A DNA stretch of 64,000 nt from an uncultured Lachnospiraceae bacterium (GTDB lineage Bacteria > Bacillota > Clostridia > Lachnospirales > Lachnospiraceae). Below are positions 12,009 to 60,618 of this stretch, in pieces. Positions within the stretch are counted from its first letter, which is position 1. Each line of letters starts with the position of its first letter. The position numbers and the translations under genes were made by a program. The stretch spans positions 31,082-95,081 of the forward strand of contig CAJTRK010000008.1 in NCBI GenBank assembly GCA_910578475.1, given 5' to 3'. Under the pieces are notes generated by a model, which saw nothing but the letters and a program-made list of their open reading frames with translations, was not told the origin of the DNA and made no database searches.

Positions 12009-12062
12009 GGCGGATGTCTCCTTTTTATTCTTGATGGTGCGGCATCGGTACACCGTATATGT

Positions 12063-13130
12063 TTAATTGTTCCTTTGATTTAAAACCTTCAGGCGCTCGA
12101 CAGCCGGCGCAAAACTGCCGCACTGTTGGTAGCAGGATACCGCGGCAGGGATGTCGCCGATAATTTCGCAGATTTCACCGGTCTGGTATACAGGAAGAAA
12201 ACTGTTCGCACCTTCCAGTCTGCATTGGGTCATGCCGACTGCCTTTTGATATTGTTCAAATGCCTGTTCGTACATTTGATTCTGCTTATAAATATTGCCC
12301 ATGAGATAGATAAAATCGGCCAGAGGAGAAAAAGCATCGTATATGCTTTCGAAACCGAGCGCCTCTTCTTTTTTGCCGGTGCGCAGGAGCGCATTTCCGT
12401 AAGAAACGACCATCGCCTGTACATAGGCCAGTTCCGGGTCCAAATCAAAAGAGAGACCCTTGCTGTAATAATCACAGGCGGCGGCATAGTCTTCGATGAT
12501 TTCACAGCTTTTTCCCAACTGATAGTACAGATAGGGACTTTCGGGGCCGCATTCGAGCTGTTTTTTCAGCAATGTATAATTGCGAAGGTACTTCGCACGC
12601 TGTTCTTCTTCCGTCATATCGTAGCCGGTATGAAAAATCGTGGTCTGTAACAGATAGGCGGAAATTTCTTTTCCACGTTTGGGAGTAAGCTGCTCATGAA
12701 TGATGCCCGTATAATGATAGAGTCTTCTGTCGAAGAAACGCTCCGTATTATCCGTGTTGTTGACAACCTGGACGCCGTTTTCCGTCACAAGATTTTCTCT
12801 GGAAACGGAACCGACGCTGTCGGATAAATGCTTACGGAAATAATTTAATTCCTCCACATCCATCGTTTTTATGTATTCGTCACAGTCGAGCATGAAAATC
12901 CAGTTATTGGAGGCCGCGCGCAGAGAAAAGTTTCTGGCGGCGCTGAAATCGTCGCACCATGCAAAATCAAGCACCTGGTCGGCATATTTTCCGGCAATCT
13001 CCTTTGTGCGGTCGGTGGAGCCGGTGTCTGCTACGACAATCTCAAAACCATAGGGTTTGATGGAGGAAAGACACTTTTCAATTCGCTTTTCTTCGTTTTT
13101 GGCAATAATACATACGGAAATGGGGTGCAT
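12063..13130 (-). CDS. GT2 + TPR glycosyltransferase, paralogue 2 of 5
   Basis: MHPISVCIIAKNEEKRIEKCLSSIKPYGFEIVVADTGSTDRT...DFSAARNF...LDCDEY, with a TPR-like C-terminal half. Confidence 0.75.
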   Translation of the reverse strand: MHPISVCIIAKNEEKRIEKCLSSIKPYGFEIVVADTGSTDRTKEIAGKYADQVLDFAWCDDFSAARNFSLRAASNNWIFMLDCDEYIKTMDVEELNYFRKHLSDSVGSVSRENLVTENGVQVVNNTDNTERFFDRRLYHYTGIIHEQLTPKRGKEISAYLLQTTIFHTGYDMTEEEQRAKYLRNYTLLKKQLECGPESPYLYYQLGKSCEIIEDYAAACDYYSKGLSFDLDPELAYVQAMVVSYGNALLRTGKKEEALGFESIYDAFSPLADFIYLMGNIYKQNQMYEQAFEQYQKAVGMTQCRLEGANSFLPVYQTGEICEIIGDIPAAVSCYQQCGSFAPAVERLKVLNQRNN

Positions 13131-13146
13131 GATAAAATCCTTTCTT

Positions 13147-14220
13147 TTACGTTATACCGAGTTCGTTCAGCCGTTCCACGGCAAGCGGGTAGCCATAGGC
13201 GGCAGCCCGTTGATAAAAGGAAACCGCAGAATTGATATCTCCTAACATTTCGTTAATCAGGCCGATATTGTAATAAGGAATATAGGTAGTGACCCCCTCG
13301 CTGCTGGCATCGGAACATTGCAATGCCCTGACAAATTCCATCATCGCTTTCATAGGCTGATTGGTTCTCAGATAAGAGACGCCAAGTGTACAGAGGAAGC
13401 TGGCATCCCCTGAAAAAGAGTCATAAAGAGGCGTAAAAAAGGCAATCGCTTCTTCGGCTCTTCCGGTAGAGTTCATGGAACGGAGATAAGCCTGGGCAAG
13501 TATCGGGAGCCAGGGCTGTGCGGGGTCAATCGGATGTTCGAAAGCCTGTTTATAATAGATGTAGGCGTTTTCATAATCTGCTATCGAGTTATAAGACTGC
13601 CCGACCTGAAAATAGAAATAAGAATCCTCGGGATTTTTTTCTATTTCTTTCAGAAGCAGGGTGTTATTTCGTTCTACTTTCTGCAGCATATCCTGTAAAC
13701 CGCCGCAGTAGCCCACATGGTCTACGGTGAGCGGAATTTCATAGCGTTCAAAATAGGTACTGTTTGTTTTGATGTCGGAAACCTGTTCGTGAATCGTATA
13801 ATTATAATGATAATATCGCTTATGGAACAGACGCTCCACGCGGTCCGGATAAGAAACGCGCATGCCGCCGCTGTCATAATAACTGTGGCGCAGAAGCATA
13901 CCAACGCTGCGGGGGTGTTCTTCAATCAGCCGGTAAATTTCATCCACGTTGATTTCCGTCAGAAATTCGTCGCAATCCAGAATTAACACATAATTATGCG
14001 TAGCCTTTTTCAGGGAAAAGTTTCTGGCGGCGCTGAAATCGTTGACCCATTCAAAATCATACACATAATCGGTGTATTTGCGGGCAATTTCCTTTGTGCG
14101 GTCAGTGGAACCGGTGTCTACAACGATAATTTCAAAATTGTAAGGCGCTAAAGGCGCCAGACATTTTTCGATATTCTTTTCTTCATTTTTGGCGATGATA
14201 CAGACTGAAATTGGAATCAT
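13147..14220 (-). CDS. GT2 + TPR glycosyltransferase, paralogue 3 of 5
   Basis: MIPISVCIIAKNEEKNIEKCLAPLAPYNFEIIVVDTGSTDRT...DFSAARNF...LDCDEF, with a TPR-like C-terminal half. Confidence 0.75.
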   Translation of the reverse strand: MIPISVCIIAKNEEKNIEKCLAPLAPYNFEIIVVDTGSTDRTKEIARKYTDYVYDFEWVNDFSAARNFSLKKATHNYVLILDCDEFLTEINVDEIYRLIEEHPRSVGMLLRHSYYDSGGMRVSYPDRVERLFHKRYYHYNYTIHEQVSDIKTNSTYFERYEIPLTVDHVGYCGGLQDMLQKVERNNTLLLKEIEKNPEDSYFYFQVGQSYNSIADYENAYIYYKQAFEHPIDPAQPWLPILAQAYLRSMNSTGRAEEAIAFFTPLYDSFSGDASFLCTLGVSYLRTNQPMKAMMEFVRALQCSDASSEGVTTYIPYYNIGLINEMLGDINSAVSFYQRAAAYGYPLAVERLNELGIT

Positions 14221-23151: not shown

Positions 23152-23196
23152 AAAACCTGTTATGCGTGTATTAATGCAATAACAGGTTTTTGTTTA
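23152..23196 (+). terminator. Intrinsic-terminator-like hairpin in the 200-nt gap before the TagF-like gene
   Basis: AAAACCTGTTAT, a 15-nt loop, then ATAACAGGTTTT, followed by TGTTTAT. The stem is a perfect 12 bp. Confidence 0.6.
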
Positions 23197-23273
23197 TGTT
23201 AATTGAATTCACAGTCTGATATGAGCATTTCACAATCACCTGATTCAAATTTAATAAAAAGGAACGGTATTTT

Positions 23274-46633: not shown

Positions 46634-47989
46634 ATGCAGACTGTTTCCATCATCATAACCGTATACAACGGAGCGGATTATCTGGAGGAATGCCTGGAAA
46701 GCGTGTTATCCCAGACATTAAGTGATACGGAGGTTATCTGTGTAGACGACGCTTCGACGGATAACACGCCTCAGATTCTGAAGGCCTATGAGAATAAAAT
46801 AACTGTCATCACCAATACGGAGAACTGCATGGCCGGAGAGTCCAGGAACAGAGGCTTTCAAAAGGCGGTTGGCGAGTATGTCGTATTTTTGGACGCGGAT
46901 GACGTCTATGAGCCGGATATGCTGCAGAAAGCTTATCATAAAGCCAAATCCTGTGGAGCGGATATCTGCATTTTTAAAGAGGATTTATTTTCGGACAGCC
47001 TTGAGAAGCGGACGAATTATGCTTACGCCGAGTCAATAATGAAAGAACTGGGAGAGCGGGCCTTTTTTTCCCCGAAAGAGCTGTCTGATACGCTTTTTGA
47101 CCTGTGGAACGGATGGGCCTGGGATAAATTATTCCGCCGGGAGTTTATTTTGGAGACAGGCTTAAAATTCCAGAAGCTGAAATCATCCAATGACGGTTTC
47201 TTTGTGCACGCTGCGCTTGCCTGTGCGGAAAGAATTTCGCTGCTGAATGAAGTTCTGGTTCATCATAGGATGGGAAATGGGAACAGCGTATCCAATACGC
47301 GTGACCAGGCATGGGAATCCTGTTTGATGTACCTGAAAGAACTGAGAAGCTATTTGCTTCATAAAGGGTTGTTTGCGTGTTATGAAGGAAGTTATCTCAA
47401 CTGGACGATGGACTTCCTGTATTGGAATTATCAGACGCTGAATGAAATAAACCGGGGAAAGCTGGCGGATGCCATGAGAAGTTTTTTCCTTGATGAGCTG
47501 AATGTGCCGCAGTATGACAGAAAAGACTTTTATAATGATTTTTACGAGTGGTTTGCCGGCTGCATCATCAGACAGGAAGAACATAAAATTCCGCTTTCGG
47601 AAGATGAACGGTTTCGGAAAATATATCAGCAGAATAAGCAGAAAATGGAAGCATTATATCAATATCTGTCTTCACGTCATTGGAAAGCGGCATTATGGGG
47701 AGCAGGAATCCGGGGACGGGCATTCGCAGAAGTATACGGCGGAAAATGGGACTGCCTGGAGTGTGCGTATGACATGGACGAGAGTAAACAGGGGAAAATG
47801 CTGCCAGGCGGGCTTTTGATTCGGAAATTTGATGTACGGAAGAAAGATGAAATTGATTGCATTTTAGTCCTGAACGAGGCGCATCTGCTATCCACGGCAG
47901 AAAGCTTAGGTGAAAAAAAAGCAGTTCTTTTTGATATGAATCTTTATCTCGATACGCCATATGAAATCGAAGATTGTGTAGTGAAATGA
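46634..47989 (+). CDS. Family-2 glycosyltransferase with a C-terminal Rossmann-like module
   Basis: VSIIITVYNGADYLEECLESVLSQT, VICVDDASTDNT and FLDADD. The C-terminus reads AALWGAGIRGRAFAEVYGG...AYDMD. Confidence 0.8.
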   Translation: MQTVSIIITVYNGADYLEECLESVLSQTLSDTEVICVDDASTDNTPQILKAYENKITVITNTENCMAGESRNRGFQKAVGEYVVFLDADDVYEPDMLQKAYHKAKSCGADICIFKEDLFSDSLEKRTNYAYAESIMKELGERAFFSPKELSDTLFDLWNGWAWDKLFRREFILETGLKFQKLKSSNDGFFVHAALACAERISLLNEVLVHHRMGNGNSVSNTRDQAWESCLMYLKELRSYLLHKGLFACYEGSYLNWTMDFLYWNYQTLNEINRGKLADAMRSFFLDELNVPQYDRKDFYNDFYEWFAGCIIRQEEHKIPLSEDERFRKIYQQNKQKMEALYQYLSSRHWKAALWGAGIRGRAFAEVYGGKWDCLECAYDMDESKQGKMLPGGLLIRKFDVRKKDEIDCILVLNEAHLLSTAESLGEKKAVLFDMNLYLDTPYEIEDCVVK

Positions 47990-48065
47990 ATATGTGCCGG
48001 TATATATATCATATTATATAAAATGGATACGGAAAGAGATATTGAAAAGGGATGGAGAAAAAATA

Positions 48066-49430
48066 ATGGATGATATCAAAGTATCAGTTTTGGTATATGT
48101 GTTAAATGATAAAGTTCATATAGAGAAGTGCGTGAGAAGCGTTATGCAGCAAACCCTGAAGGAGCTGGAAATACTGCTGATTGATGGAGGCAGTACCGAT
48201 GGTACGCTGGAAAAATTGGAACAGCTGCAAAAAGAGGATTCCCGGATAAAGATAATCAGGAGCGGCGCCGGTGTAGGTTTGCAGTTCAATACCGGATGCA
48301 AGGCGGCAGCGGGGAAATATATCGGAATATGTGAATCGGATGATTATCTGCTCCCGGATATGTACGAGCGGCAGTACGCGGTTGCGGAGCAGTTTGAACT
48401 GGACGTATTAAGGGCAAATATAAATCGTTTTTGTGGAGATGGGGACAGGCAGTATGATTTTCCGTTTGCGGTATCTGCCGACAGAACATTGTATGATACG
48501 CTTCTGTATCCGCAGGAGGATGCAAGGTTTTTGGGGTTGGGAGTGAACTGCTTCTGGAGCGGATTATACAGAAAAGAATTTTTACTGGCTAAGGATATCT
48601 CTATGAACGAGACAAAAGGCGCTTCTTATCAGGATACGAGCTTTTCTTTTCTGACACAGATGTATGCGGAGCGGGCCTATGTGATGAGCGATGCTTTTTA
48701 CTGCTATCGCATTGACAATCCAAATTCCTCTGTCAATAATCCGCAGAAGGCAGCTTTGCTGAATACGGAATACCGGTTGTTGAAAGAGAAGCTGAAACAA
48801 CGTAATCTTTGGGAAAAGTACAGGGAAATATATTGGAAATGGCGGGTCAACGGTTATTTCTGGGCCTATGATAATGTATCGGAAGAGGGGAAAGCCGAGT
48901 ATCTTCCGGTCTTTTATAAAGACATCAGGGAAGAAATGGAGTCAGAACTTTACCTGGGAACGGAACTTTCCGGAAAGGAACGGGCGTTATGTGAAAGCGG
49001 CAGAGGTTCTCTGGCGGAATTTGGTGATTTTCTGGAACGGGCGGATGCGCTGAGAAAACAGGAAGAAAAGAAAATAAGAGAAATCGGGACAGACGGTCAA
49101 ACGGTTATTTTCGGAGCGGGAAATCTGGGACTGCTGGCAAGTGGATATCTGGAACAGAAAGGGAAGAAGGCGGCTGCCTATATCGATAATGCTGCCTGGA
49201 AATGGGACAGCCTTTTTTACGGTCTTCCGGTTTTATCACCCGAAGAAGGCGTCTGTCAATATCCGGACGCTGCGTATATTATTGCGAATGCCGCTCATGG
49301 ACAGGAAATGAAAGAACAGCTGAACAGTCTGGGAATCCGTGATGACAAAGTCGTTATCTGTGACAATTATGATTTGTTTATCGCGCATATCTTAGTTCCT
49401 TATTGGAAGAAGGGCGGCAGCAATGATTAG
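48066..49430 (+). CDS. Family-2 glycosyltransferase with a C-terminal Rossmann-like module
   Basis: VSVLVYVLNDKVHIEKCVRSVMQQT, ILLIDGGSTDGT and CESDDY. The C-terminus reads VIFGAGNLGLLASGYLEQKGKKAAAYIDN...GLPVLSPEE. The ATG at 48066 is preferred over the track start at 47994. Confidence 0.8.
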   Translation: MDDIKVSVLVYVLNDKVHIEKCVRSVMQQTLKELEILLIDGGSTDGTLEKLEQLQKEDSRIKIIRSGAGVGLQFNTGCKAAAGKYIGICESDDYLLPDMYERQYAVAEQFELDVLRANINRFCGDGDRQYDFPFAVSADRTLYDTLLYPQEDARFLGLGVNCFWSGLYRKEFLLAKDISMNETKGASYQDTSFSFLTQMYAERAYVMSDAFYCYRIDNPNSSVNNPQKAALLNTEYRLLKEKLKQRNLWEKYREIYWKWRVNGYFWAYDNVSEEGKAEYLPVFYKDIREEMESELYLGTELSGKERALCESGRGSLAEFGDFLERADALRKQEEKKIREIGTDGQTVIFGAGNLGLLASGYLEQKGKKAAAYIDNAAWKWDSLFYGLPVLSPEEGVCQYPDAAYIIANAAHGQEMKEQLNSLGIRDDKVVICDNYDLFIAHILVPYWKKGGSND

Positions 49431-50610
49431 TATAATTGTACCCGTTTATAATGTCGGTTCGTATTTACCAAAATGTATCGACAGTATCTTAAAACAGACC
49501 TGCGGTGACTTTGAGCTGATTCTGGTGGACGACGGTTCAACGGATGATTCGCCTCAGATTTGTGACAGCTATAAAGAAAAGGACGCAAGAGTTGTCGTCA
49601 TACATAAACAGAATGAAGGCCTGGTCAGGGCAAGAAAGACAGGACTGCAAAAGGCAGCTGGCCAATATATCTGCTATGTGGATGGCGATGACTGGATAGA
49701 AGCCGATATGATAGAGCATTTATCGGAAAAAATGGCGGAGACAGGAGCTGACCTGGCAGCTTCCGGCCTTTATTGTGAGTCGGAAGATTCTGTCCAGAAA
49801 TTACATGGAAAATTGGAAGCCGGAATTTATGATACAAAAGAGATTCTTTCAATCATGTTATATACCGGAGAATTTTATGAATTTGGCGTCAGCCAGTTCG
49901 CCTGTACAAAATTGTTTCGAAGAGATTTATTATGGGATGTCCAGATACAGGTGGATGACAGAATTAATTGCGGTGAAGATGTGGCCGTGACATATCCCTA
50001 TATTCTCCGGACACAAAAGATTTGTATATCGGATTATATCGGATATCACTATATACAGCGGGCCGGTTCCATCGTAGGATGTTTTGATTCTGACGAATAT
50101 GACAGAAATAAAATACTGATTGCATATTTGAAAAATATCTTTGACCGGTCAGCTTATGCGGAATGTCTGCTCAGGCAGTTAAACCAGTATGCCAAAAATT
50201 TATTTCTGACACGCAATATCGCCTGTTTTGATGTTCTTCAAAAGGATGAAATACTGATGCCTTATGGCGGCATACCGGTAAATGCCCGCATTATCCTGTA
50301 TGGGGCCGGAAAAATGGGACAGAGCCTGTACAGGTATCTGAAAGGCCGGGATTCCATAGAAGTGGTGGACTGGCTGGATAAAAATTCCGCCGTATATCAA
50401 AAAAAAGGTATGGAAGTGCATTGCCCCGATTGTTTGAAAAAAATACAGGATAAGGCATATGATTTTCTCTTGATTGCGGTAAACAGCCAGAAGGCGGTAA
50501 AAAGCATTTATTGCTGTTTAGAGGAAATGGGCGTAAACGCGGAAAAGATAAAGTGGCTGAGGGAAGAGTTTATCAGGGAAGATTACTTTATACTGGATGC
50601 GTTTGCATGA
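49423..50610 (+). CDS. Family-2 glycosyltransferase with a C-terminal Rossmann-like module
   Basis: ISIIVPVYNVGSYLPKCIDSILKQT, LILVDDGSTDDS and YVDGDD. The C-terminus reads IILYGAGKMGQSLYRYLKGRDSIEVVDWLDKN. It overlaps the upstream gene by 8 nt. Confidence 0.8.
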   Translation: MISIIVPVYNVGSYLPKCIDSILKQTCGDFELILVDDGSTDDSPQICDSYKEKDARVVVIHKQNEGLVRARKTGLQKAAGQYICYVDGDDWIEADMIEHLSEKMAETGADLAASGLYCESEDSVQKLHGKLEAGIYDTKEILSIMLYTGEFYEFGVSQFACTKLFRRDLLWDVQIQVDDRINCGEDVAVTYPYILRTQKICISDYIGYHYIQRAGSIVGCFDSDEYDRNKILIAYLKNIFDRSAYAECLLRQLNQYAKNLFLTRNIACFDVLQKDEILMPYGGIPVNARIILYGAGKMGQSLYRYLKGRDSIEVVDWLDKNSAVYQKKGMEVHCPDCLKKIQDKAYDFLLIAVNSQKAVKSIYCCLEEMGVNAEKIKWLREEFIREDYFILDAFA

Positions 50611-50649
50611 AGTTTTGAGAACTTTGAGCGGGGAAAAAGGAGAAACGGC

Positions 50650-51837
50650 ATGGACATGGAAATCATTTTATTTGGAAGCGGAGCGATTGGCCAGGAGGCC
50701 CTTGCTTTTCTGGGAAATAGTAATGTCGTATGTTTTTGCGATAATAATCCCGAACTGGCGGGAAAAGAAAAACATGGAAAGACAGTGATTCCATTTCAGG
50801 AATTAAAGCAGGAACATAAAGAAGCGGTTGTGGTCATTTCTGCGAACCGTAAAATAGCATATGAGATTGTAAATCAGTGTGAAGAAAATGAAATCCGGGA
50901 TTATGTGTTTTATGAATCTTTGAAGGATTTATATCCGGAAAGGAAGGATGCTCTGGCATTTTTATCGGATTCGGAAAACCGGACAAACATGCGGAAAGAT
51001 ATCTATTTTGCCAAGATAAAGGAATTACAGGAACAGGTAGATTATTTAAAAAGACACGCGGATATAAGGCATATGAAGCCTGCCACAGGAGAACTTCGAA
51101 AGTGGCAGCTGGAACTTGCGGACATGTCGGAGGAGTTTTTTGAGAAATTGCACGGGTTGGATATAAAGCCTTTCTTAGACGGCGGCAATTTATTGGGATA
51201 TGTCAGACATAATGGATTTATTCCGTGGGATGATGATATTGACTTTGCGCTCATTAGAGACGAATATGAAAAACTGAAGGATTTTTGCCGGAAAAATATT
51301 TGTTCCATGCAAGAGTTTGCGAACAGAAAAAATACAGACGTTCATAATGTTACCGGAATGGAAAACTATTATTGGATTAATTTTGGTGATTTTATCAGAA
51401 TTGTCAAGCACGTTCCGGGTGGAAACGATTTAAGAGTTGAATTTTTTTCATTGGATTTTTATAACGATGCCTATACTTTTGAAGAATTGATGAAATTTTC
51501 GGAAGAGGTACGGAAAAAAATGATAAAAGGTTCCTTTGAAGAAATGGCAAGTTTTTTTGAAGCCGTACTGAATGAAAATCGTCAAAATATTGTCAAAGAC
51601 AGCAGTCATATTTATTTCGGAATAGATAACATGGAAATTCGGAATACGCACAGTAAAAACCAGTGGATTCCCAAAGAGGTTATATTTCCCTTACAAAGGA
51701 TTCAGTTTGAAGGAAAATCTTTCTGGGTACCGAATAAACCGGAAGAATTTCTGCAGTATGAATATGATTCTATCTGGGATTATCCCGATGATGTCGGAGC
51801 ACCAAAGCATTATGGCGGTTTGGGAATATCCGAATGA
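50650..51837 (+). CDS. LicD-family phospho(choline/alditol) transferase with an N-terminal Rossmann-like module
   Basis: FLDGGNLLGYVRHNGFIPWDDDIDFAL is the LicD signature. The N-terminus reads IILFGSGAIGQEALAFLGNSNVVCFCDNN...GKTVIPFQEL. Confidence 0.75.
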   Translation: MDMEIILFGSGAIGQEALAFLGNSNVVCFCDNNPELAGKEKHGKTVIPFQELKQEHKEAVVVISANRKIAYEIVNQCEENEIRDYVFYESLKDLYPERKDALAFLSDSENRTNMRKDIYFAKIKELQEQVDYLKRHADIRHMKPATGELRKWQLELADMSEEFFEKLHGLDIKPFLDGGNLLGYVRHNGFIPWDDDIDFALIRDEYEKLKDFCRKNICSMQEFANRKNTDVHNVTGMENYYWINFGDFIRIVKHVPGGNDLRVEFFSLDFYNDAYTFEELMKFSEEVRKKMIKGSFEEMASFFEAVLNENRQNIVKDSSHIYFGIDNMEIRNTHSKNQWIPKEVIFPLQRIQFEGKSFWVPNKPEEFLQYEYDSIWDYPDDVGAPKHYGGLGISE

Positions 51838-51883
51838 TTATAGAAACAGAACACTTGGAAACGATTGTTTCCATAGCTTATAA

Positions 51884-53518
51884 GTGGGTGGAAGCAGGGT
51901 GAATGACGATAACAGAGAAACTTCTGTCAGAAATGCGATTATTCTGGCAGCAGGATACGGAATGAGAATGGTTCCCGCGGACAGGGAGATACCCAAAGGG
52001 CTTCTCGAAGTGTACGGGGAGCCATTAATTGAACGGCTTATCAAACAGTTGCAGGAAGCCGGTATATCGGAAATCTATGTGGTAGTCGGATATAAAAAAG
52101 AAAAGTTTGAATATCTGATAAAAAGATATGGGGTGAAGCTGATTTTCAATGCAGAATACGCAGAAAAAAACAGTCTGTATTCTTTAAAAGCAGCTGCGGG
52201 ATATTTATCCGATTCCTATATTATTCCATGCGATGTATGGTGTAAAAGGAATCCGTTCCGTCGTCAGGAATCCGGTTCATGGTATATGGTCGGTTCTCTG
52301 ATGGATAAAGAAAGCCTCGTACGGGTGGATTCCTCCGGAGAACTTGTTCTGGTTCCCAAAGATAATTCTGGAAATACAATGATTGGCATTTCGTATCTGG
52401 CAAAAGAGCAGGCGGCTGTCGTCAGAGACAAAATGACAGCGCTTTGCAGAGAGAATGGCAATGCAGAACTCTTATGGGAAGAGGCATTGCTTAACCGGGC
52501 CGAAAATAAGATGATGATACGGTCAAGGCTTGTTGACGCGGACGATGTGGTGGAAATCAATACCTATGAGCAGCTGCGCGAACTGGATAAAAATTCAAGT
52601 CATCTGCAATCGGATGCAATCGCGGCAGCGGCCGAAATAATAGGCGTTGGAAATGATGAAATTGTCGATATATCTGTTTTAAAAAAAGGGATGACAAACC
52701 GCTCTTTTCTGTTTTCATGCCGCAACCGGAAATATATTATGAGGATTCCGGGAGAAGGGACCCAACAGCTTATCGACAGGCGTGCAGAGGCAGAAGTGTA
52801 TCAAAGCCTGAAAGGAAAAGGCATTTGCGATAATGTTATCTATATGAATGCGGAAAACGGGTATAAAATAACGGAATTTATAGAGGGAACGAGAGTATGC
52901 GACCCGTTTAACCCCAAAGATTTAGTAATCTGTATGGAGAAACTGCGTGCATTTCACGAGCAGGAATTCGGCGTGGAGAGGGAGTTTCACATTTTTGAAC
53001 AGATTGAATTTTATGAAGCCCTGTGGGGCGGAAAACCGTCTGCATATCAGGACTATGAGACTACAAAAGAGCGGGTAATGCGGCTGCAGTCCTATATCAA
53101 TGCCCATACGGATAAAAAAGTATTGACGCACATAGATGCTGTTCCGGATAATTTTCTGATTATGGAGGATGAAAAGGGAGCCTGTGAAGTCCGGATTATC
53201 GATTGGGAATATGCCGGGATGCAGGACCCGCATATCGATATTGCAATGTTCTGCATCTATTCAATGTATGAAAAAGAGCAGGTGGATAATCTGATTGATA
53301 TTTATTTTCAGCAGAACTGTCCTGACGAGACAAGAGTAAAAATTTACTGCTATATAGCCGCCTGCGGCCTGCTGTGGAGTAACTGGTGCGAATATAAAGC
53401 GATACTGGGCGTTAAATTTGGGGAGTATTCCCAAAGACAGTATGATTATGCAAGAGAGTATTATCAGATTGTGCAGGATATTTTAAGCCGGGAAGAGGAT
53501 GAAGGATGTATTACATAA
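51884..53518 (+). CDS. Bifunctional nucleotidyltransferase (LicC-like) / choline-ethanolamine-type kinase (LicA-like) fusion
   Basis: The N-terminus reads NAIILAAGYGMRMVP...PKGLLEVYGEPLIERLIKQLQEAGISEIYVVVGY. The C-terminus has LTHIDAVPDNFLI (HxDxxxxN) and RIIDWEYAGMQDPHIDIAMF, a choline kinase motif. The start (GTG 51884 or 51899) is uncertain. Confidence 0.7.
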   Translation: MGGSRVNDDNRETSVRNAIILAAGYGMRMVPADREIPKGLLEVYGEPLIERLIKQLQEAGISEIYVVVGYKKEKFEYLIKRYGVKLIFNAEYAEKNSLYSLKAAAGYLSDSYIIPCDVWCKRNPFRRQESGSWYMVGSLMDKESLVRVDSSGELVLVPKDNSGNTMIGISYLAKEQAAVVRDKMTALCRENGNAELLWEEALLNRAENKMMIRSRLVDADDVVEINTYEQLRELDKNSSHLQSDAIAAAAEIIGVGNDEIVDISVLKKGMTNRSFLFSCRNRKYIMRIPGEGTQQLIDRRAEAEVYQSLKGKGICDNVIYMNAENGYKITEFIEGTRVCDPFNPKDLVICMEKLRAFHEQEFGVEREFHIFEQIEFYEALWGGKPSAYQDYETTKERVMRLQSYINAHTDKKVLTHIDAVPDNFLIMEDEKGACEVRIIDWEYAGMQDPHIDIAMFCIYSMYEKEQVDNLIDIYFQQNCPDETRVKIYCYIAACGLLWSNWCEYKAILGVKFGEYSQRQYDYAREYYQIVQDILSREEDEGCIT

Positions 53519-54213
53519 AGAGAGCGATTATTCTGGCGGCAGGAATGGGAAACAGAATGAGTCCCGTGACAAAGAAGACTCCGAAACCGCTGATTCGGGT
53601 AAATGGCACGCGAATCATTGATACGGCGATACAGGGGTTAAGAGCGAATGGGATTCAGGAAATTTATGTGGTGACAGGTTATCTGAAAGAACAATTCAGT
53701 GGCCTGGAGAAAGATTATCCGGGATTAAAGCTGATTGAAAATCCTTATTATGCCGAATGCAATAATATTTCCTCCCTGTATATGGCAAGGGAGTATATCG
53801 GGGATGCGATGATACTGGATGGAGACCAGATAATTTATAATAACAGCGTTCTTGCGCCGGAATTTGTCCGTTCGGGATATAATGCCGTATGGGTGGAAAA
53901 CGGAACGGATGAGTGGTTAATGACGGTCAAAGATGATATTGTAACCAATTGCAGCCGTGTCGGCGGAAAAGAAGGCTGGCAGTTATTCAGCATTTCCAGA
54001 TGGAATACGGAAGACGGGGAAAGATTAAAAAAGCATTTGGAAACAGAATTTGAAAGAAAGAAGAATACCCAGATTTATTGGGACGATATTGCGATGTTCT
54101 TATATCAGCGGGAATACCGACTGGGAATTTATCCAATGTCTCAGGGGGATATTGTTGAGGTTGATAATTTGTATGAGCTTGCGGCGCTGGATAGAAGTTA
54201 CGCGGCGGAATGA
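53506..54213 (+). CDS. LicC-like nucleotidyltransferase (CTP:phosphocholine cytidylyltransferase family)
   Basis: RAIILAAGMGNRMSPVTKKTPKPLIRVNGTRIIDTAIQGLRANGIQEIYVVTGY. It overlaps the upstream gene by 13 nt. Confidence 0.7.
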   Translation: MYYIKRAIILAAGMGNRMSPVTKKTPKPLIRVNGTRIIDTAIQGLRANGIQEIYVVTGYLKEQFSGLEKDYPGLKLIENPYYAECNNISSLYMAREYIGDAMILDGDQIIYNNSVLAPEFVRSGYNAVWVENGTDEWLMTVKDDIVTNCSRVGGKEGWQLFSISRWNTEDGERLKKHLETEFERKKNTQIYWDDIAMFLYQREYRLGIYPMSQGDIVEVDNLYELAALDRSYAAE

Positions 54214-55760
54214 GAGGAAACATGAACAAAACTCAGAAATTAAAGGACCAAATTGACTGGGTTTCAATAATCGTACCGTTTCTGGGAGTTAGTGCGCTTT
54301 GTGCTGTTTTTATGATATTTCCGGGGCAGTCTGCGATAATTCTGCAGATTATCCGTGGATTTCTTGGAGATGAATGCGGAATATATTATGCGGTATTGGG
54401 TGTTGGCATACTTCTCTGCACAATCTATATCGCTTTTTCCAGATATGGACAAGTCAGACTGGGAGAAGGAAAACCCTTGTATTCCTCCTTTACATGGGGA
54501 ACCATGATTTTTACATCTACAATGGCGGCAGACATTCTCTTTTATTCGCTGATTGAATGGGCTTTGTATGCGAATGAGCCGCATATTGAGAAGATGGGAG
54601 GAATACAAAATTGGGCTTCTACCTACCCATTGTTTCACTGGGGGCCGATTGCCTGGAGTTTTTACATTGCTCTGGCGGTGGCCTTTGGCTTTATGCTGCA
54701 TGTCAGACATTGTGAAAAACAAAAGTTTTCAGAAGCATGCAGACCGATTTTAGGTTGTAAGATAGACGGCGTTTGGGGAAAAGTGATTGATTTGATAGCA
54801 ATATTTGCATTGATTGCCGGAACTGCGACTACCTTTTCGCTCGCGACGCCTTTACTTTCATCGGCATTCAGTAAAGTACTGGGGATTTCGGCAGGAAGAG
54901 GAGGAACCATCGTCATATTGCTTCTGATAGCATTTATCTATACGTTGACTGTATGGTTTGGAATGAAAGGTATTTCAAAACTGGCTTCCTGGTGCACTTA
55001 TCTGTTCTTTGTATTATTACTTTATTTTTTAATCGGCGGCGGAGAAACCGTTTACATTTTGGAAACGGGATTTTCTGCGATTGGAAATCTGATTCAGAAT
55101 TTTATCGGAATATCTACCTGGATGGACCCTCTGCGCGAAAGCAGCTTTCCACAGAACTGGACGATATACTATTGGGCATATTGGATGGTCTGGTGCGTTG
55201 CGACTCCGTTTTTTATCGGTTCTATCAGCAAAGGAAGAACTGTCAAAAATACGATTCTCGGGGGATACGGATGGGGAATTGCAGGAACATTCACGTCATT
55301 TATTATTCTTGGCAACTATGGATTGGCGCAGCAGGTGAAGCATGGACTGGATGTGGCCGGATTCATTGCCGATGGCGGGGCATATTCGGACGCGATTCTG
55401 ATAATTTTTGAAACAATGCCGCTTGAACGGATTGGGCTGCTTCTCCTGGTAGTAACCATGATTGCATTTTACTCTACGACATTTGATTCCATTACAATGG
55501 TGGTTTCTTCTTATTCATATAAAAAGCTTCCGGTCGGGCAGGAGCCGGATAAACGGGTCAGAACTTTTTGGGCTGTTATGTTTATCGTGTTTCCGATTGC
55601 GCTTATATTTTCAGAAAGCTCTATGTATCATTTGCAGTCCGTATCGATTATCGCGGCATTTCCGATTGGACTGGTTGTATTGTTAATCATCGCAAGCTTT
55701 TTTAAAGACATTAAAAAGTATTGGCTGAGCGCAAATGGAAAGGATGCAGAAAATCAATGA
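54210..55760 (+). CDS. BCCT-family (betaine/carnitine/choline) transporter
   Basis: The protein is polytopic and hydrophobic. WTIYYWAYWMVWCVATPFFIGSISKGRTVKN matches the BCCT signature region. The ATGA arrangement overlaps the upstream stop. Confidence 0.85.
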   Translation: MRGNMNKTQKLKDQIDWVSIIVPFLGVSALCAVFMIFPGQSAIILQIIRGFLGDECGIYYAVLGVGILLCTIYIAFSRYGQVRLGEGKPLYSSFTWGTMIFTSTMAADILFYSLIEWALYANEPHIEKMGGIQNWASTYPLFHWGPIAWSFYIALAVAFGFMLHVRHCEKQKFSEACRPILGCKIDGVWGKVIDLIAIFALIAGTATTFSLATPLLSSAFSKVLGISAGRGGTIVILLLIAFIYTLTVWFGMKGISKLASWCTYLFFVLLLYFLIGGGETVYILETGFSAIGNLIQNFIGISTWMDPLRESSFPQNWTIYYWAYWMVWCVATPFFIGSISKGRTVKNTILGGYGWGIAGTFTSFIILGNYGLAQQVKHGLDVAGFIADGGAYSDAILIIFETMPLERIGLLLLVVTMIAFYSTTFDSITMVVSSYSYKKLPVGQEPDKRVRTFWAVMFIVFPIALIFSESSMYHLQSVSIIAAFPIGLVVLLIIASFFKDIKKYWLSANGKDAENQ

Positions 55761-55852
55761 TTACGAACGAGCGGTAAACTGGGTAAAAAATAATTATTCG
55801 GACGAAGGAAAGTAGAAAAACCTTGCAAAACGGATTGGAACGGAGGAGTTTT

Positions 55853-57133
55853 ATGGGAAAGGAATGCGAGAACGATGCTGACAGATTTTCCGGTATTCTT
55901 GAAAAGCCCTTCTGCATCTACGGCGCCGGCATCGTTGCGACCAGCGTTTACACCGCAATCCGGACGCTGTACCGGAAAAAACCTCTTTTTTTCCTGGTAT
56001 CGGATGCTGCGGAAGGAAAGCCGGACGAGAACCCATATGAAATAAACGGTATTCCGGTAAAAAGAATGTCCGAATGGAAGCCTGGGAAATTTTCAGCAGG
56101 AAGCCGGCCGGAATACTATCTCGTTGTCGCTCCCGAGACGCATCATCCCGCCATAACGGAGTCATTGCATTCTCTGCGGATAGAAGATTCCCGAATCGTT
56201 CTGTTTACCGGTGAACTGGAAAATCAGTTTATGGAAGCCTATTACAGCAGCCTGCCGGGATGCGGCACGGTAAAGAAACTGTTGGCCGCAAAAGCGGGAT
56301 ATGCGCAGGAAACTGTTGCTATGAAAGAAATCGTAAAGAAGCCTGATTATGCAAGAGAGGATACTGCAGCAGAATCAGCGGCAGGATTGGCCATCATGAT
56401 ACCGCATGAAGCTGAGACGACCGCGGCCCGTAAGCCGGATATCCTCCGCGTCTTTCAGGCCAAATGTCATGTGGACCGCCCCTTACAGAATCCGGTACAG
56501 AACCCTTCTTATGTGTACCCGATTCAGGTCGGCGCAGACCTTACGGAGCAGATTATCTCCGGACTGCAGGATAATCAGGGGGAAAATATTTCCTGCAAAA
56601 ACCGCAATTACTGTGAGCTGACCGCTACATATTATGCCTGGAAGAATTGTCAGGCGGCTTACAAGGGATTATGCCATTACCGGCGGATTTTTGAAATAGA
56701 TGACTGCCAGATGCGGGAGTTGATGAACCGGCGGGAGGAATGGGATGTGATTCTTCCCTATCCGTCCGTCCATTATCCGAACATTTCTACACAGCATCTT
56801 CGCTATATCCGGGAGGAAGACTGGCAGGCGATGCTGCGGGCATTGGAAGAAACTGCGCCGGATTATTTTGCGGCCTGGCGGCAACTGGTCGATGGCGGAG
56901 AGCAGTTCTTTTATAATTACAATATGCTGATTGCCAGAGCCGAAGTATTTGACGATTACTGCGATTTCCTTTTTTCCGTTCTGGAGCGGGCGGAAGCGCT
57001 GACGACGCCGAAGGGATGGGAGCGGGCTGACCGTTTTGCGGGATATATGGGCGAGAATCTGACGACGCTTTATTTTTTGAAAAACAAAGATAAATTAAAG
57101 ATTTTACATGCGGGAAAACGATGGCTGGTTTAA
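55853..57133 (+). CDS. DUF4422-type putative glycosyltransferase with an N-terminal Rossmann-like module
   Basis: ILRVFQAKCHVDRPL, YPIQVGA, NRNYCELTATYYAWKN and GLCHYRRIFE resemble DUF4422. The N-terminus reads FCIYGAGIVATSVYTAI...FLVSD...INGIPV. GGAGG precedes the ATG at 55853. Confidence 0.6.
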   Translation: MGKECENDADRFSGILEKPFCIYGAGIVATSVYTAIRTLYRKKPLFFLVSDAAEGKPDENPYEINGIPVKRMSEWKPGKFSAGSRPEYYLVVAPETHHPAITESLHSLRIEDSRIVLFTGELENQFMEAYYSSLPGCGTVKKLLAAKAGYAQETVAMKEIVKKPDYAREDTAAESAAGLAIMIPHEAETTAARKPDILRVFQAKCHVDRPLQNPVQNPSYVYPIQVGADLTEQIISGLQDNQGENISCKNRNYCELTATYYAWKNCQAAYKGLCHYRRIFEIDDCQMRELMNRREEWDVILPYPSVHYPNISTQHLRYIREEDWQAMLRALEETAPDYFAAWRQLVDGGEQFFYNYNMLIARAEVFDDYCDFLFSVLERAEALTTPKGWERADRFAGYMGENLTTLYFLKNKDKLKILHAGKRWLV

Positions 57134-57180
57134 TTGTGACCTTTTCAAACCATAAAACAGTCTAAAAGAAAGGCAAAATT

Positions 57181-58263
57181 ATGACACAGATAATTTCAAA
57201 CAGTGATAATCGGGTATATCAGAAAAATGACGCTGCGTCGGCATCCGTGGAGGCGGCCCTGCCGCTGGAAGCGCTAGCCGGCAAGACAGTCCTTCTGTCC
57301 GGCGCGACGGGCATGATTGGAAAATGTATGATAGACCTGTTGATGCAGTATAATCACAATCATATGGAAGGAGAACCGATTCGTATCGTTGCCTTGAGCC
57401 GAAACCGTCAGAGTGCGGAGAAACGGCTGGCGGAATATTGGAAGGAAGAAGCTTTCCGTTATTTTGCCTGTGATGTCAATCAGGAAATCCCGGAGTGCGG
57501 TCAGGCGGATTACGTTATTCATGCGGCGAGCAATACGCATCCCCTGCAATATTCCCAGGATTCTATCGGGACGATTACGGCAAATGTGATTGGAACGAAG
57601 AACCTGTTGAATTATGCGGTTTCCCATAAAACGGAGCGTTTCTGTTTTGTTTCGTCAGTAGAAATATATGGGGAGAACCGGGGAGATGTGGAACGGTTTC
57701 AGGAGGATTATCTCGGTTATCTGAACTGTAATACGCTGCGCGCCGGGTATCCAGAGAGCAAGCGGGTGGGAGAAACGCTGTGTAACGCCTATGGTCAGAC
57801 TTATCAGCTTGATTTCGTTATTCCGAGACTGAGCAGGACGTATGGACCGACCATGCTTCCTTCTGACTCCAAAGCGATTGCACAGTTCATTAAGAAAGCG
57901 GCTGCAGGGGAAGACATTGTTCTGAAAAGCGCGGGCACACAGTTGTATTCCTATGCTTATGCGCCGGATGCGGCAACGGGGATTCTCACAGTATTGCTGA
58001 AAGGAAAGAGCGGAGAGGCCTATAATGTTTCTGATACGGATTCAGAAGTAACGTTAAGGCAGATAACGGAATGGCTGGCAGAAGACAATGGTGTAAAAGT
58101 AACGTTTGAAGTGCCGGATGTGACCGAGCAGGCCGGTTATTCGACTGCGACGAGAGCGCTTCTCGATACGGAAAAAATAGCGGCGCTTGGGTGGCGGCCG
58201 CAGACGCATATGCGGGAAGGACTTATGGAAACGGTAAGAAGTCTGCGGGAAACGCAGTCCTGA
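57181..58263 (+). CDS. NAD-dependent extended-SDR sugar-nucleotide epimerase/dehydratase/decarboxylase family protein
   Basis: VLLSGATGMIGKCMIDLL (GxxGxxG) and YPESKRVGE (YxxxK). Confidence 0.75.
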   Translation: MTQIISNSDNRVYQKNDAASASVEAALPLEALAGKTVLLSGATGMIGKCMIDLLMQYNHNHMEGEPIRIVALSRNRQSAEKRLAEYWKEEAFRYFACDVNQEIPECGQADYVIHAASNTHPLQYSQDSIGTITANVIGTKNLLNYAVSHKTERFCFVSSVEIYGENRGDVERFQEDYLGYLNCNTLRAGYPESKRVGETLCNAYGQTYQLDFVIPRLSRTYGPTMLPSDSKAIAQFIKKAAAGEDIVLKSAGTQLYSYAYAPDAATGILTVLLKGKSGEAYNVSDTDSEVTLRQITEWLAEDNGVKVTFEVPDVTEQAGYSTATRALLDTEKIAALGWRPQTHMREGLMETVRSLRETQS

Positions 58264-58301: not shown

Positions 58302-59414
58302 TTACGTCAGCTCCCGCAGTCTCTTCCGCGCCATCTCAAAACCACCGCACTTCCGGTAATATTTTCTTGCCTCGTCTTTTTGTCCGGTGCATTCGTAAAT
58401 AACACCGATATTATAGTATGCGCGGTAGCTGTTGATGCCTTCCACCGAAAACTGTTCCATAGAGGTACACTTTATAAACTCTTCAACAGCTTCCGTAAAC
58501 AGGCCGTTGTTCATATAAATCAGTCCCATCAGGAAGACAAAATCGGCCCGGACGGCGAAGACTTCATAAATATTCTCAAGCTGTAAAGCTTCCTGAAAGC
58601 GTTTCATATCCAGCAGACAATATCCATAAGATTCCACCATATTCTGAACATAATCCTGAGAGGGCTCTATATCCATGGAAAGTCCGAGGTTAAACCATTC
58701 ATAAGCTTTCTCATAGTCTTTCAGTTTCATACAGCTCTGGGCAAGCTGATAATAAAGATAGGCATCGGGGCCGGCGGTCTTGAGTTCCTGCTCCAGCAGG
58801 GCGATGTTTCGGCGGGATTTCGCCTGCATTTCTTCCTCAGAACCGTCATAACCGACATGAAGGACGGTAATCGGAGCGGCATAGACCGGTATGGGCTGTG
58901 AAGCATCGGATATGTCTGCTTCGGCGGAGGAACCTTCGACGCTGCAATCTTTCGTACAAGTTAGTTTCCGCGTCACCTGTTCGTGGATTTTTCCGCTAAA
59001 ACAATAGTATTTTCTGTTAAAAAAGCGGCAGAGCCGCACATTTTCGAAGTTGGTCAGTCCGTTTTGCCGAAAGCGGTTGCGCAGCAAGATGCGCCCGGCC
59101 CGTTCGGGATACTGCGCCATCAGTCCGGACAGTTCTTTCTCATCGAGATGCTCCAGGTATTCGTCGCAGTCGAGGCTGAGAATCCAGTCGTTGGAAGCCT
59201 TCAGGACCGCAAAGTTCTTGGCGGCGCTAAAATCGTTTATCCAGTCGAAGTGATAAATTTTATCAGTGTATTTTGCTGCGATTTCCAGGGTCTTATCGGT
59301 AGACCCTGTATCCACCAAAACTATCTCGTAATGGTAGGGTTTTATCCTTTTTAAACATTCTTCTATATGTTGTTCTTCATTTCTGGCAATGATACAAACG
59401 GATATTTGCAGCAT
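58302..59414 (-). CDS. GT2 + TPR glycosyltransferase, paralogue 4 of 5
   Basis: MLQISVCIIARNEEQHIEECLKRIKPYHYEIVLVDTGSTDKT...DFSAAKNF...LDCDEY, with a TPR-like C-terminal half. Confidence 0.75.
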   Translation of the reverse strand: MLQISVCIIARNEEQHIEECLKRIKPYHYEIVLVDTGSTDKTLEIAAKYTDKIYHFDWINDFSAAKNFAVLKASNDWILSLDCDEYLEHLDEKELSGLMAQYPERAGRILLRNRFRQNGLTNFENVRLCRFFNRKYYCFSGKIHEQVTRKLTCTKDCSVEGSSAEADISDASQPIPVYAAPITVLHVGYDGSEEEMQAKSRRNIALLEQELKTAGPDAYLYYQLAQSCMKLKDYEKAYEWFNLGLSMDIEPSQDYVQNMVESYGYCLLDMKRFQEALQLENIYEVFAVRADFVFLMGLIYMNNGLFTEAVEEFIKCTSMEQFSVEGINSYRAYYNIGVIYECTGQKDEARKYYRKCGGFEMARKRLRELT

Positions 59415-59416
59415 GA

Positions 59417-60463
59417 TTACAGTTCTTCCAATCTTTTTACGGCATTGTTATAGTCTCCGCATTTCTGATAGTATTCCCGTGCTTTGTCTTTATCGCCCAA
59501 CGTTTCATAAATAAAGCCGATATTATAGTAGGCGCGGTAGCTGTTGACGCCCTTACGGGAATAGGAAGTCAGGGTCGTTGCTTTTTCAAATTCCCGGATT
59601 GCTTTATCCCACATATTTTTTTTCATATAAACAACACCCATCATATAAACGAAATCGGCGTGATGAGAAAACTGTTCATATTTATTCTTAAGCGCCATTG
59701 CCAAATCATATTTGGCAAGTTCAATCAGACAGTAGCCATACGTTTCGGTCATGCTCTGGACAAAGGCGGAGTTAGGGTCTGCGTTGAGTTCCAGACCGAG
59801 TTTGTGATAGTAAGCGGCCTTTTCCAGGTCATTAAGCGAAATATAATTTTGGCCGAGCTGGAAATAGATATAAGGATTCGGCCCTTTCAGTTCCAGGTCG
59901 TGCAGAAGCATTTCCAGGTTACGGGCAGCGCGCATCCGCTTATCCGATTCCGCCACATAGCCTTCATGATAAAAGGTCAGTGGAATCGGAAAGGTATTCG
60001 GTTCCTTTCCGTCAAGCGTTGTGACCTGTTCGTGAATATTCCCTTCATAATGGCAGTAGTTCCGGTTAAAAAGCCTTCCGATGCGCTCGGACATGACGGA
60101 GCGGACGCCCTGAAGGGTATACGGATTGTTGCGGATAATCATGCCGACGGAGGTCAGGTTATCCTCCAGAGCTTCTTCAATGTCTGCAAGATTAATATTT
60201 TCCAGATATTCGTCACAGTCGATGGCAAGAATCCAGTCGTTCGATGCCTGCGCAATGGAAAAATTTCTGGCGGCGCTAAAGTCGTCGCACCAGTCAAAAT
60301 GGAAAACTTTATCGGTATATTTTCGGGCGGTTTCCATCGTTCTGTCAACGGAACCCGTATCGACAACGATAATTTCAAATTTACATGGCCGGAGCCTTTT
60401 TAAACATTCTTCAATATGGATATCTTCATTTTTTGCAATCATGCAGACGGAAACAGGGAACAT
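59417..60463 (-). CDS. GT2 + TPR glycosyltransferase, paralogue 5 of 5
   Basis: MFPVSVCMIAKNEDIHIEECLKRLRPCKFEIIVVDTGSVDRT...DFSAARNF...IDCDEY. The start at 60463 is chosen by alignment with the paralogues. The track start at 60517 would add 18 aa. Confidence 0.75.
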   Translation of the reverse strand: MFPVSVCMIAKNEDIHIEECLKRLRPCKFEIIVVDTGSVDRTMETARKYTDKVFHFDWCDDFSAARNFSIAQASNDWILAIDCDEYLENINLADIEEALEDNLTSVGMIIRNNPYTLQGVRSVMSERIGRLFNRNYCHYEGNIHEQVTTLDGKEPNTFPIPLTFYHEGYVAESDKRMRAARNLEMLLHDLELKGPNPYIYFQLGQNYISLNDLEKAAYYHKLGLELNADPNSAFVQSMTETYGYCLIELAKYDLAMALKNKYEQFSHHADFVYMMGVVYMKKNMWDKAIREFEKATTLTSYSRKGVNSYRAYYNIGFIYETLGDKDKAREYYQKCGDYNNAVKRLEEL

Positions 60464-60618
60464 GGTTATCATCATGCCTTTCTTTTGCGGGTTATGTAAA
60501 ATCTTATATGAGACCATTTTATCATGTTCTGAGGATTCCGCAACCTATAAATTCCTATATTTTCTCCCGGTTTTTTCTATGCTTTTTGCCCAATAAATCA
60601 TGTTGATTTTCTGCTATT

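Follow-up and report, generated by a model that had tools for sequence, protein, structure and literature searches.

The stretch of DNA analyzed here (hereafter the window) comprises 64,000 nucleotides of contig CAJTRK010000008.1 (positions 31,082 to 95,081), from the assembly of an uncultured Lachnospiraceae bacterium (GCA_910578475.1). Between positions 50650 and 55760 of the window, four open reading frames (ORFs) follow in succession on the + strand and encode a LicD-family phosphotransferase, a LicC-like nucleotidyltransferase fused to a LicA-like kinase, a second LicC-like nucleotidyltransferase and a transporter of the BCCT family. A preliminary description of this DNA had named these four consecutive genes and recognized in them the logic of the Lic pathway; our ORF and Pfam analyses agree with the gene list, and the Pfam families and best solved relatives, LicA and LicC, agree with the pathway. 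The module lies within an island of flagellar glycosylation genes, and we consider it reasonably probable, from the residues and gene contexts set out below, that it is a self-contained cassette that supplies phosphocholine and transfers it to the O-linked glycan of flagellin.

The first gene (50650..51837) encodes a long LicD of 395 amino acids, and its start is preceded by a good ribosome-binding site (AAAGGAG). The fusion gene (51884-53518) specifies 544 amino acids; this exact ORF has no public record because public gene calls place the start at GTG 51899, which yields a protein of 539 amino acids. With an approximate boundary between them, 51899..52630 encodes the N-terminal LicC-like nucleotidyltransferase domain of this protein and 52631..53518 its C-terminal choline kinase domain, which is of the LicA type. 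A free-standing LicC-type enzyme of 235 amino acids, the putative CTP:phosphocholine cytidylyltransferase, is encoded at 53506..54213, and the BCCT-family transporter, a presumed choline importer of 516 amino acids, at 54210..55760, where an alternative start at ATG 54222 has a better ribosome-binding site. The genes had been described as overlapping, which is correct for the last two junctions (13 nt between fusion and LicC, 53506/53518, and 4 nt between LicC and BCCT, 54210/54213) but not for the first, where a spacer of 46-61 nt separates LicD from the fusion gene. We found no terminator-like intergenic sites within the four-gene module or between it and the neighboring transferase genes. 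The domain assignments lie well beyond what chance would give. Hundreds of gut metagenome contigs, from human-gut assemblies, carry the module in conserved form.

Substrate residues of the kinase, the nucleotidyltransferases and the transporter

The kinase half of the fusion protein was recognized by Pfam as Choline_kinase/APH (residues 263-487; PF01633, 63.7 bits against a cut-off of 29), and its best solved relative is pneumococcal LicA (4R77; E 8e-31 over residues 257-523). We read the kinase residues from the 4R77 alignment against the published LicA structure (PMC4364537). The stretches THIDAVPDNF and IDWEYAG align to the Brenner (HxDxxxxN) and choline-kinase (IDWEY) motifs of LicA, and the two motifs singled out in the preliminary description, THIDAVPDNF and IDWEYAGMQDPHIDIA, are indeed present in the sequence. 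The catalytic residues D176, N181, D194 and E196 are retained, as are V178, Y197, W251, W254 and Y268, which form the cage for the quaternary amine, together with T29. The domain is thus predicted, from its conserved residues, to be a LicA-type choline kinase. Homologues of the fusion protein number in the thousands; those at ∼60% identity, from many Lachnospiraceae, carry an extra N-terminal helix-turn-helix (HTH) domain that is absent from the protein in the window.

Both nucleotidyltransferases resemble pneumococcal LicC (1JYK), the free-standing enzyme over its full length (Pfam NTP_transf_3/NTP_transferase; E 6.8e-36, residues 6-228), with the phosphonate cytidylyltransferase PntC as its next relative, and the fused domain (NTP_transf_3 at residues 18-118) with an E of 1.2e-27 over residues 17-235. 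The two pockets were compared with that of LicC in a MAFFT alignment, in which D105, D192, R129 and E216 were assigned according to PMC6697681. The free enzyme and its orthologues retain G14, G16, R18, K28, D105, D107, W136, Y190, W191, D192 and E216, and R129 of LicC is replaced by Val in the 235-amino-acid protein. Of these, the two Gly, R18 and K28 make up the GxGxR...K signature, D107 and E216 are metal and phosphate residues, and D105 and D192 belong to the head-group pocket together with the aromatic W136, Y190 and W191. Cluster members of the free enzyme carry the NCBI name 'phosphocholine cytidylyltransferase family protein'.

The fused domain differs. Its nucleotide- and metal-binding residues (G14, G16, R18, K28, D107 and E216) are intact, but the head-group pocket is altered by the changes Y85K, D105P, W136E, Y190L (Phe in most homologues), D192E and D218N, so that the domain is LicC-like in fold and we do not class it as a phosphocholine cytidylyltransferase. 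The same pattern recurs in 16 of the 17 aligned homologues, and we therefore propose that selection acts on it to preserve something different from a LicC pocket. Homologues P0029-P0120 share a conserved pocket of this other kind (K85, P105, E/D136, F/L190, W191, E192 and N218). The change D192E parallels the Glu found in PntC, which is specific for aminoethylphosphonate (PMC6697681). In a related locus with a LicD 70% identical to that of the window (L091), the kinase stands alone without the fused domain, and the only nucleotidyltransferase is an orthologue of the free enzyme with 77% identity. From this arrangement the free enzyme would be the essential cytidylyltransferase and the fused domain accessory. 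Judged by its sequence, then, the fused domain is a divergent accessory domain, which may contribute to CDP-choline formation or act on a related amine.

The transporter gave 391.5 bits with the Pfam BCCT family (PF02028) and 401.9 with TIGR00842, just below the cut-off of 407.55, and a hydropathy scan found at least nine hydrophobic segments. Its solved relatives are, in order, DddT (E 6e-85), CaiT (1e-49) and BetT (5e-40), and the aromatic box of transmembrane segment 8 reads YWMVW within WTIYYWAYWMVW. The box residues do not separate substrates, and the support for choline as substrate of the transporter is contextual. The window contains no gene for an EamA-type (LicB) permease, and the module thus differs from a canonical licABCD set.

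A kinase/LicC/BCCT cassette is widespread in Lachnospiraceae, where it normally lies in Wzx/Wzy wall-polysaccharide loci. In Hominiventricola filiformis, for example, an HTH-LicC-LicA protein, LicC and BCCT are encoded at the end of such a locus, which has two short LicDs, and the cassette adjoins a gene for a 1130-amino-acid protein with choline-binding repeats. The three supply genes of such wall cassettes are orthologous to those of the window (54-69% identity) and share their order and both nucleotidyltransferase domains. In contrast, the HTH domain, the Wzx/Wzy genes, the short LicDs and the choline-binding-repeat protein belong to the wall cassette, whereas the cassette in the window has lost the HTH domain, has a long LicD as partner and is located in a flagellar island. 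Another organism has a single polypeptide of 831 amino acids that unites all three catalytic domains, with BCCT following it. Two further cassettes adjoin a gene for a Wzx-type flippase; L149 also has Wzy and a short LicD, and the second has a TagF-like gene. In L149 an EamA/LicB-type permease occupies the position of BCCT; at that usual BCCT position (12631-14458) there is, besides the permease, an extra free choline kinase. Because BCCT is exchangeable with a LicB-type permease, and because an orthologous cassette has a choline-binding-repeat protein as neighbor, choline is supported as the transported substrate. The preliminary description had pointed to the BCCT importer in place of LicB and to the two nucleotidyltransferase domains as features of this locus. 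Both are present, but both are traits of the cassette family: the first is an ordinary property of the widespread Lachnospiraceae choline cassette, and the second, likewise found elsewhere, involves two domains that are not equivalent, one LicC-type and one divergent.

The flagellar setting and the long LicD

The window opens with late flagellar genes (47-10818) for the C-terminal fragment of a rod/hook protein, an FlgL-like protein, FliW, FlaG, FliD and flagellin. The flagellin gene (9760..10818, + strand; Pfam Flagellin_N and Flagellin_C, NCBIfam flagellin Hag) encodes the presumed protein acceptor, whose central region is rich in Ser and Thr (21% Ser+Thr). Directly after fliD and the flagellin gene begins an island of ∼45 kb, which includes a + strand train of ∼40 sugar-nucleotide and transferase genes (16556-58263). 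It is bracketed by five genes for GT2-TPR glycosyltransferases of the GmaR type, three of which adjoin the flagellin gene (10959..14220, − strand) while two close the island (58302..60517, − strand). The best solved relative of the GT2-TPR proteins is the Listeria flagellin O-GlcNAc (N-acetylglucosamine) transferase GmaR (E 2.4e-32), followed by the peptide glycosyltransferase SunS. The FlgL-like, FliW, FlaG, FliD and flagellin genes at 762-10818 and the GT2-TPR genes on both sides of the train bear out the flagellar glycosylation setting proposed earlier.

In a hydropathy scan of the 52 large ORFs, a single polytopic membrane protein was found, the BCCT transporter, and no Wzx flippase, Wzy polymerase, ABC exporter or polyprenyl-phosphate transferase was found among them. 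A single membrane protein and no lipid-carrier genes are the signature of stepwise glycosylation of a protein in the cytoplasm and not of a lipid-linked polymer. Directly upstream of the module are three genes for soluble GT2 glycosyltransferases (46634..50610, + strand), each with a C-terminal Rossmann-like domain; they lack transmembrane segments, are conserved together with the module in L001-L007, and probably build the acceptor glycan.

The LicD protein scored 86.9 bits with Pfam PF04991 (cut-off 22.6), and 54 bits with the NCBIfam cholinephosphotransferase model Mf1, for which the cut-off is 225. In a confident AlphaFold model built on 46 homologues (predicted local distance difference test, pLDDT, 92.2), a small Rossmann-like domain at the N-terminus (about residues 1-90) is joined through a helical linker to the catalytic domain at the C-terminus, which is LicD/FKRP-like and has a nucleotidyltransferase-type fold. 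In Foldseek searches with this model, the C-terminal domain matched FKRP (E 5e-7) and the 90-residue N-terminal domain resembled the N-terminal domains of WbpM-like, Rex and PglB/VioB proteins. The DxD metal motif, PWDDDID, is invariant across the 46 sequences of the family alignment.

Long LicDs of ∼400 amino acids form a family of several hundred proteins, and the contexts that could be read are islands of soluble transferases, often with genes for DUF4422 and epimerase proteins and in several cases for GT2-TPR proteins. Many of these transferases bear the same Rossmann-like domain as LicD, named 'C2185-like_N'. Long island-type LicDs are present in L007, L091, L093 and L094, whereas the LicDs of wall-type cassettes near flippases or polymerases are short (233-275 amino acids). 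A profile search of genome-collection contigs with the full LicD alignment, a profile keyed on generic LicD motifs, picked up, among the matches listed, almost exclusively short LicDs, which came from many phyla, with L011 as the one locus of the long form. The partner genes of long LicDs differ from locus to locus: the choline cassette in the window species, L007 and L091, other nucleotidyltransferases in L092, and phosphoenolpyruvate (PEP) mutase with phosphonopyruvate decarboxylase in L093, L095 and L118. Because these partners vary, the long LicD looks like a general head-group transferase of such islands, and the gene content of the last three loci predicts phosphonate head groups in islands of the same type. 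In those loci the long LicDs lie together with a PEP-mutase fusion and a thiamine pyrophosphate enzyme that resembles phosphonopyruvate decarboxylase; L093 (1399-11206) has three long LicDs and also DUF4422 and epimerase genes, two GT2-TPR genes and glf.

The Rossmann-like domain of ∼90 amino acids occurs repeatedly in the window: at the N-termini of LicD (50650-50920) and of the DUF4422 protein (55823-57133), at the C-termini of the three GT2 proteins (49423-50610, 47994-49430 and 46634-47989) and, weakly marked, on a DUF268 protein in the public gene calls. It was seen in L091-L094 and is found on methyltransferases of related islands. Its sequence includes GxGxxG, to which the LicDs add FCDNN as a second motif, and Pfam names the domain C2185-like_N or PglD_N-like; it could serve in nucleotide binding, as a scaffold or in recognition of flagellin.

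A metagenomic contig of the same species (L094) revealed what can take the place of the module. Its flanks are 97-99% identical to the window in nucleotide sequence (blastn), and with a sharp break at these coordinates, window positions 50611..55751 (5.14 kb) are replaced by 3.17 kb of other sequence (L094 13769-16937). The replacing segment has genes for two methyltransferases, for a SerB/ThrH-like HAD protein that carries a DxDxT motif near its N-terminus, and for a nucleotidyltransferase of 220 amino acids. This composition matches that of Clostridioides difficile FtaA (phosphoserine-phosphatase-like), FtaB (cytidylyltransferase) and FtaC (N-methyltransferase), a likeness of domain composition and of the DxDxT motif, not of alignment with the C. 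difficile proteins. No TagF-like FtaD was found in the part of L094 that was read. An extra long LicD of a second type (398 amino acids; L094 10001-11197) is inserted there between two GT2 genes, at window ∼47990-48065, and in strain L005 this extra LicD occurs together with the choline module. Since L094 replaces the module with another cassette, at least two head-group cassettes are interchangeable in this slot, the choline module being one of them.

Phosphocholine as a predicted flagellin decoration

What the sequence shows directly is which genes are present, that active-site residues are conserved, in what context the genes lie and that another allele can replace them. From this we infer that the substrate is choline, which we hold to be likely, that the donor is CDP-choline, and that the acceptor is the flagellin glycan, which we regard as nearly as likely. 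In the pathway that we propose, choline would be taken in from the gut lumen by the BCCT transporter and phosphorylated by the LicA-type kinase domain, and the free-standing LicC-type enzyme would convert the product to CDP-choline. A glycan would be built on flagellin in the cytoplasm by the soluble glycosyltransferases of the island, started by a GmaR-type enzyme, and the long LicD would move phosphocholine from CDP-choline to a sugar hydroxyl of this growing glycan. The decorated flagellin would then leave through the flagellar export apparatus, giving a filament that displays phosphocholine, and the cassette would constitute one allele of a head-group slot that varies between strains. The flagellin glycan had already been named as the target in the preliminary description, and that proposal is strengthened by the GmaR-type genes on the flanks, the lack of lipid-carrier, flippase and polymerase genes in the island, the island-specific long LicD and the Fta-like allele.

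The pathway has clear parallels in known systems. With the Lic-1 system (LicA, LicB, LicC and LicD) of Streptococcus pneumoniae and Haemophilus influenzae, it shares import, a choline kinase, a CTP:phosphocholine cytidylyltransferase and LicD-mediated transfer to a glycan, and pneumococcal LicA and LicC are the closest solved relatives, with conserved substrate residues. It differs from Lic-1 in having BCCT instead of LicB, a kinase fused to an extra, divergent LicC-like domain, and a LicD of ∼400 amino acids with an added Rossmann-like domain. In addition, phosphocholine is predicted to be placed on a flagellin glycan that is bound to protein and made in the cytoplasm, whereas the Lic-1 acceptors are teichoic acid and lipo-oligosaccharide. 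Phase-variation repeat tracts like those of H. influenzae licA or the poly-G tract of C. upsaliensis were sought in the lic genes, and none was found.

A second parallel is provided by the C. difficile type A system (FgtA and FtaABCD), in which CDP-N-methylthreonine is made for transfer to flagellin GlcNAc, giving a phospho-N-methylthreonine head group (PMC4441256, PMC10714395, bioRxiv 10.64898/2026.02.12.704994). As in that system and in the b-type flagella of Pseudomonas aeruginosa PAO1, a CDP-activated zwitterionic phospho-head group would be attached to a sugar that flagellin already bears, by enzymes whose genes lie beside that of the flagellin glycosyltransferase, and in L094 a set resembling FtaA, FtaB and FtaC occupies this very slot. 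In contrast to C. difficile, the predicted head group here is imported choline rather than phosphothreonine of intracellular origin, a transferase of the LicD/FKRP type stands in place of a TagF-like FtaD, and the glycan, judged by the ∼40 genes of the island, would be far larger. The module lacks FtaA, FtaB, FtaC and FtaD, and L094 has FtaA/B/C-like genes but LicD, not FtaD; by analogy, then, the module appears to work like the Fta system without being a member of it. Aminoethylphosphonate has also been found on the flagellin glycan of C. difficile (PMC8861647), and zwitterionic phospho- or phosphono- head groups on flagellin glycans therefore have a precedent.

A third comparison concerns the transferase. 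Of the eukaryotic LicD-superfamily enzymes FKRP and fukutin, which transfer ribitol-phosphate from CDP-ribitol, FKRP is the closest solved fold to its catalytic domain, has the DxD metal site and likewise adds a phospho-alcohol to a protein-linked O-glycan. However, sequence identity is only 16-18%, the donor and the accessory domains differ, and FKRP acts in the eukaryotic Golgi.

Several points weigh against phosphocholine on flagellin. The model is drawn wholly from sequence and context. LicD enzymes classically act on lipid-linked glycans, and no LicD enzyme is known to act on a protein-bound glycan. No flagellar structural genes are found within 10 kb of the related long-LicD loci, where the link to flagella consists of GT2-TPR genes only, and in the window the glycosylation train is preceded by a sigma-A-like promoter (TTGACA-N17-TATAAA, 16416-16445). 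The part of the genome that was read is the window, and a lipid-linked acceptor may be encoded elsewhere. As for the substrate, the closest solved relative of the transporter is DddT, an importer of dimethylsulfoniopropionate, and not BetT, and rim residue E213 of LicA is Tyr in the kinase domain, the sole change among the cage and rim residues.

One alternative explanation is that CDP-choline is made here but that LicD decorates a wall polysaccharide or teichoic acid encoded elsewhere, the flagellar position of the genes being incidental. Cassettes ∼62% identical to this one occupy Wzx/Wzy polysaccharide loci in other Lachnospiraceae, the known LicD acceptors are lipid-linked glycans and our coverage of the genome is the window, all of which are consistent with this explanation. 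We nevertheless think it unlikely: the LicD here is of the long island type and not the short LicD of wall loci, its extra Rossmann-like domain is common to the neighboring island transferases, an Fta-like cassette occupies the slot as an alternative allele, genes for export or a lipid carrier are lacking from the island, and the HTH domain of the wall-type fusion proteins is absent.

A second alternative, which we judge to be improbable to a similar degree, if slightly more so, keeps the flagellin glycan as acceptor and changes the head group, to a different onium compound or amino alcohol (for example ethanolamine, mono- or dimethylethanolamine or a choline analogue) or to two head groups, one for each nucleotidyltransferase. 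The specificity of the transporter cannot be read from its sequence, with DddT as nearest solved relative; the pocket of the fused nucleotidyltransferase is conserved and more acidic, with a change (D192E) that parallels PntC; the kinase has Tyr for E213; and the donors of LicD-family enzymes are varied, with FKRP as closest fold and relatives paired with phosphonate genes. On the other hand, the four-residue aromatic cage of LicA and the pocket residues of LicC are intact, a LicB-type permease can be exchanged with BCCT in the cassette, a choline-binding-repeat protein adjoins an orthologous cassette, and the relative in L091 has only LicA and the LicC orthologue. The earlier caution that the head group is not certain was fair, but the evidence as a whole favors choline. 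Very improbable, finally, is the view that no glycan is decorated and that CDP-choline serves phosphatidylcholine synthesis (compare LicCA of Treponema denticola) or that choline is imported for osmoprotection: spirochete LicC-LicA fusions do serve phosphatidylcholine synthesis and BCCT transporters are typically osmolyte importers, but a LicD transferase belongs to the cassette, the island has no membrane CDP-alcohol phosphatidyltransferase, BCCT being its only membrane protein, and glycosyltransferase genes surround the cassette, which is apparently transcribed together with them.

Teichoic acids, lipo-oligosaccharide, pili and EF-Tu are known carriers of phosphocholine. The preliminary description had remarked that it is not an established decoration of flagellin, and our full-text literature search concurs, with no report of phosphocholine on flagellin and none of a choline kinase in a flagellar glycosylation locus. 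Within the literature searched, a LicD-type transferase combined with imported choline in a flagellin island is new. On the surface of bacteria, phosphocholine is a classic epitope of host mimicry and immune recognition that is bound by C-reactive protein (CRP), the platelet-activating factor (PAF) receptor and natural antibodies of the T15 type, and the flagellins of Lachnospiraceae are dominant commensal antigens in Crohn's disease. If our proposal is correct, the phosphocholine allele would put a host-like epitope, reactive with CRP and natural antibodies, on an immunodominant flagellin; a phosphocholine glycan would change how Lachnospiraceae flagellin antigens are read, as would cassette exchange at the strain level. 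The interaction of these flagellins with TLR5 and antibody is under active study (compare bioRxiv 10.1101/2025.07.18.665615). Phosphocholine on flagellin would also mean that bacterial LicD-family enzymes can use protein-bound acceptors, as FKRP does in mammals, and would make more general the CDP-head-group chemistry that was recently established for FtaD of C. difficile.

A broader picture can be offered only tentatively. The flagella of gut Lachnospiraceae may carry zwitterionic head groups that vary between strains and are installed on protein-bound glycans by a dedicated family of long LicDs, with phosphocholine or an N-methylated phospho-amino acid in this species and phosphonate in its relatives; the slot would then be a locus of antigenic variation and immune modulation.

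Other features of the island

Sigma-D-type promoters (TAAA-N16-CCGATA) precede flaG (5546-5571) and the flagellin gene (9547-9572), and only these two genes have one; a sigma-D promoter was sought before the glycosylation train and none was found. Downstream of the slot are genes for the DUF4422 protein, with its N-terminal Rossmann-like domain, and an NAD-dependent epimerase/dehydratase (about 55853..58263, + strand), both conserved in L007, L091, L093 and L094. The DUF4422 protein had no match in a PHROGs search. At the end of the island lies glf, for UDP-galactopyranose mutase (61109-62257). The DUF4422 gene (about 55853-57133) and glf recur together at the ends of related islands (L007 and L093), and the DUF4422 protein might therefore be a galactofuranosyltransferase.

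The upstream part of the train (16556-25844) encodes two IspD-like cytidylyltransferases, a DUF1796 protein, a 743-amino-acid protein with a citrate-lyase-ligase C-terminal domain and an 856-amino-acid protein with a weak TagF-like match (PF04464; E 5.9e-4, below the cut-off). This region may be a second phospho-head-group module of the same island. We also considered whether LicD might be fed by CDP-alcohols from the two IspD-like genes, which lie 33 kb upstream, and judged this less likely, both because the adjacent supply genes travel with LicD as a swappable block (51899-55760) and because the upstream genes have a weak TagF-like candidate of their own.

A poly-G tract at 43687-43695 coincides with the split of an island methyltransferase gene into two ORFs (43276-43710 and 43685-44047). 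The tract is G9, with a frameshift, in the window, L001 and L003, and G8, with an intact protein of 256 amino acids, in L002, L004 and L006, so that the split gene looks like a phase-variable contingency gene, by analogy with the flagellar glycosylation loci of Campylobacter. A second tract, G8 at 19632-19639, is located inside an ORF of 347 amino acids (19267-20310) with weak similarity to methyltransferases.

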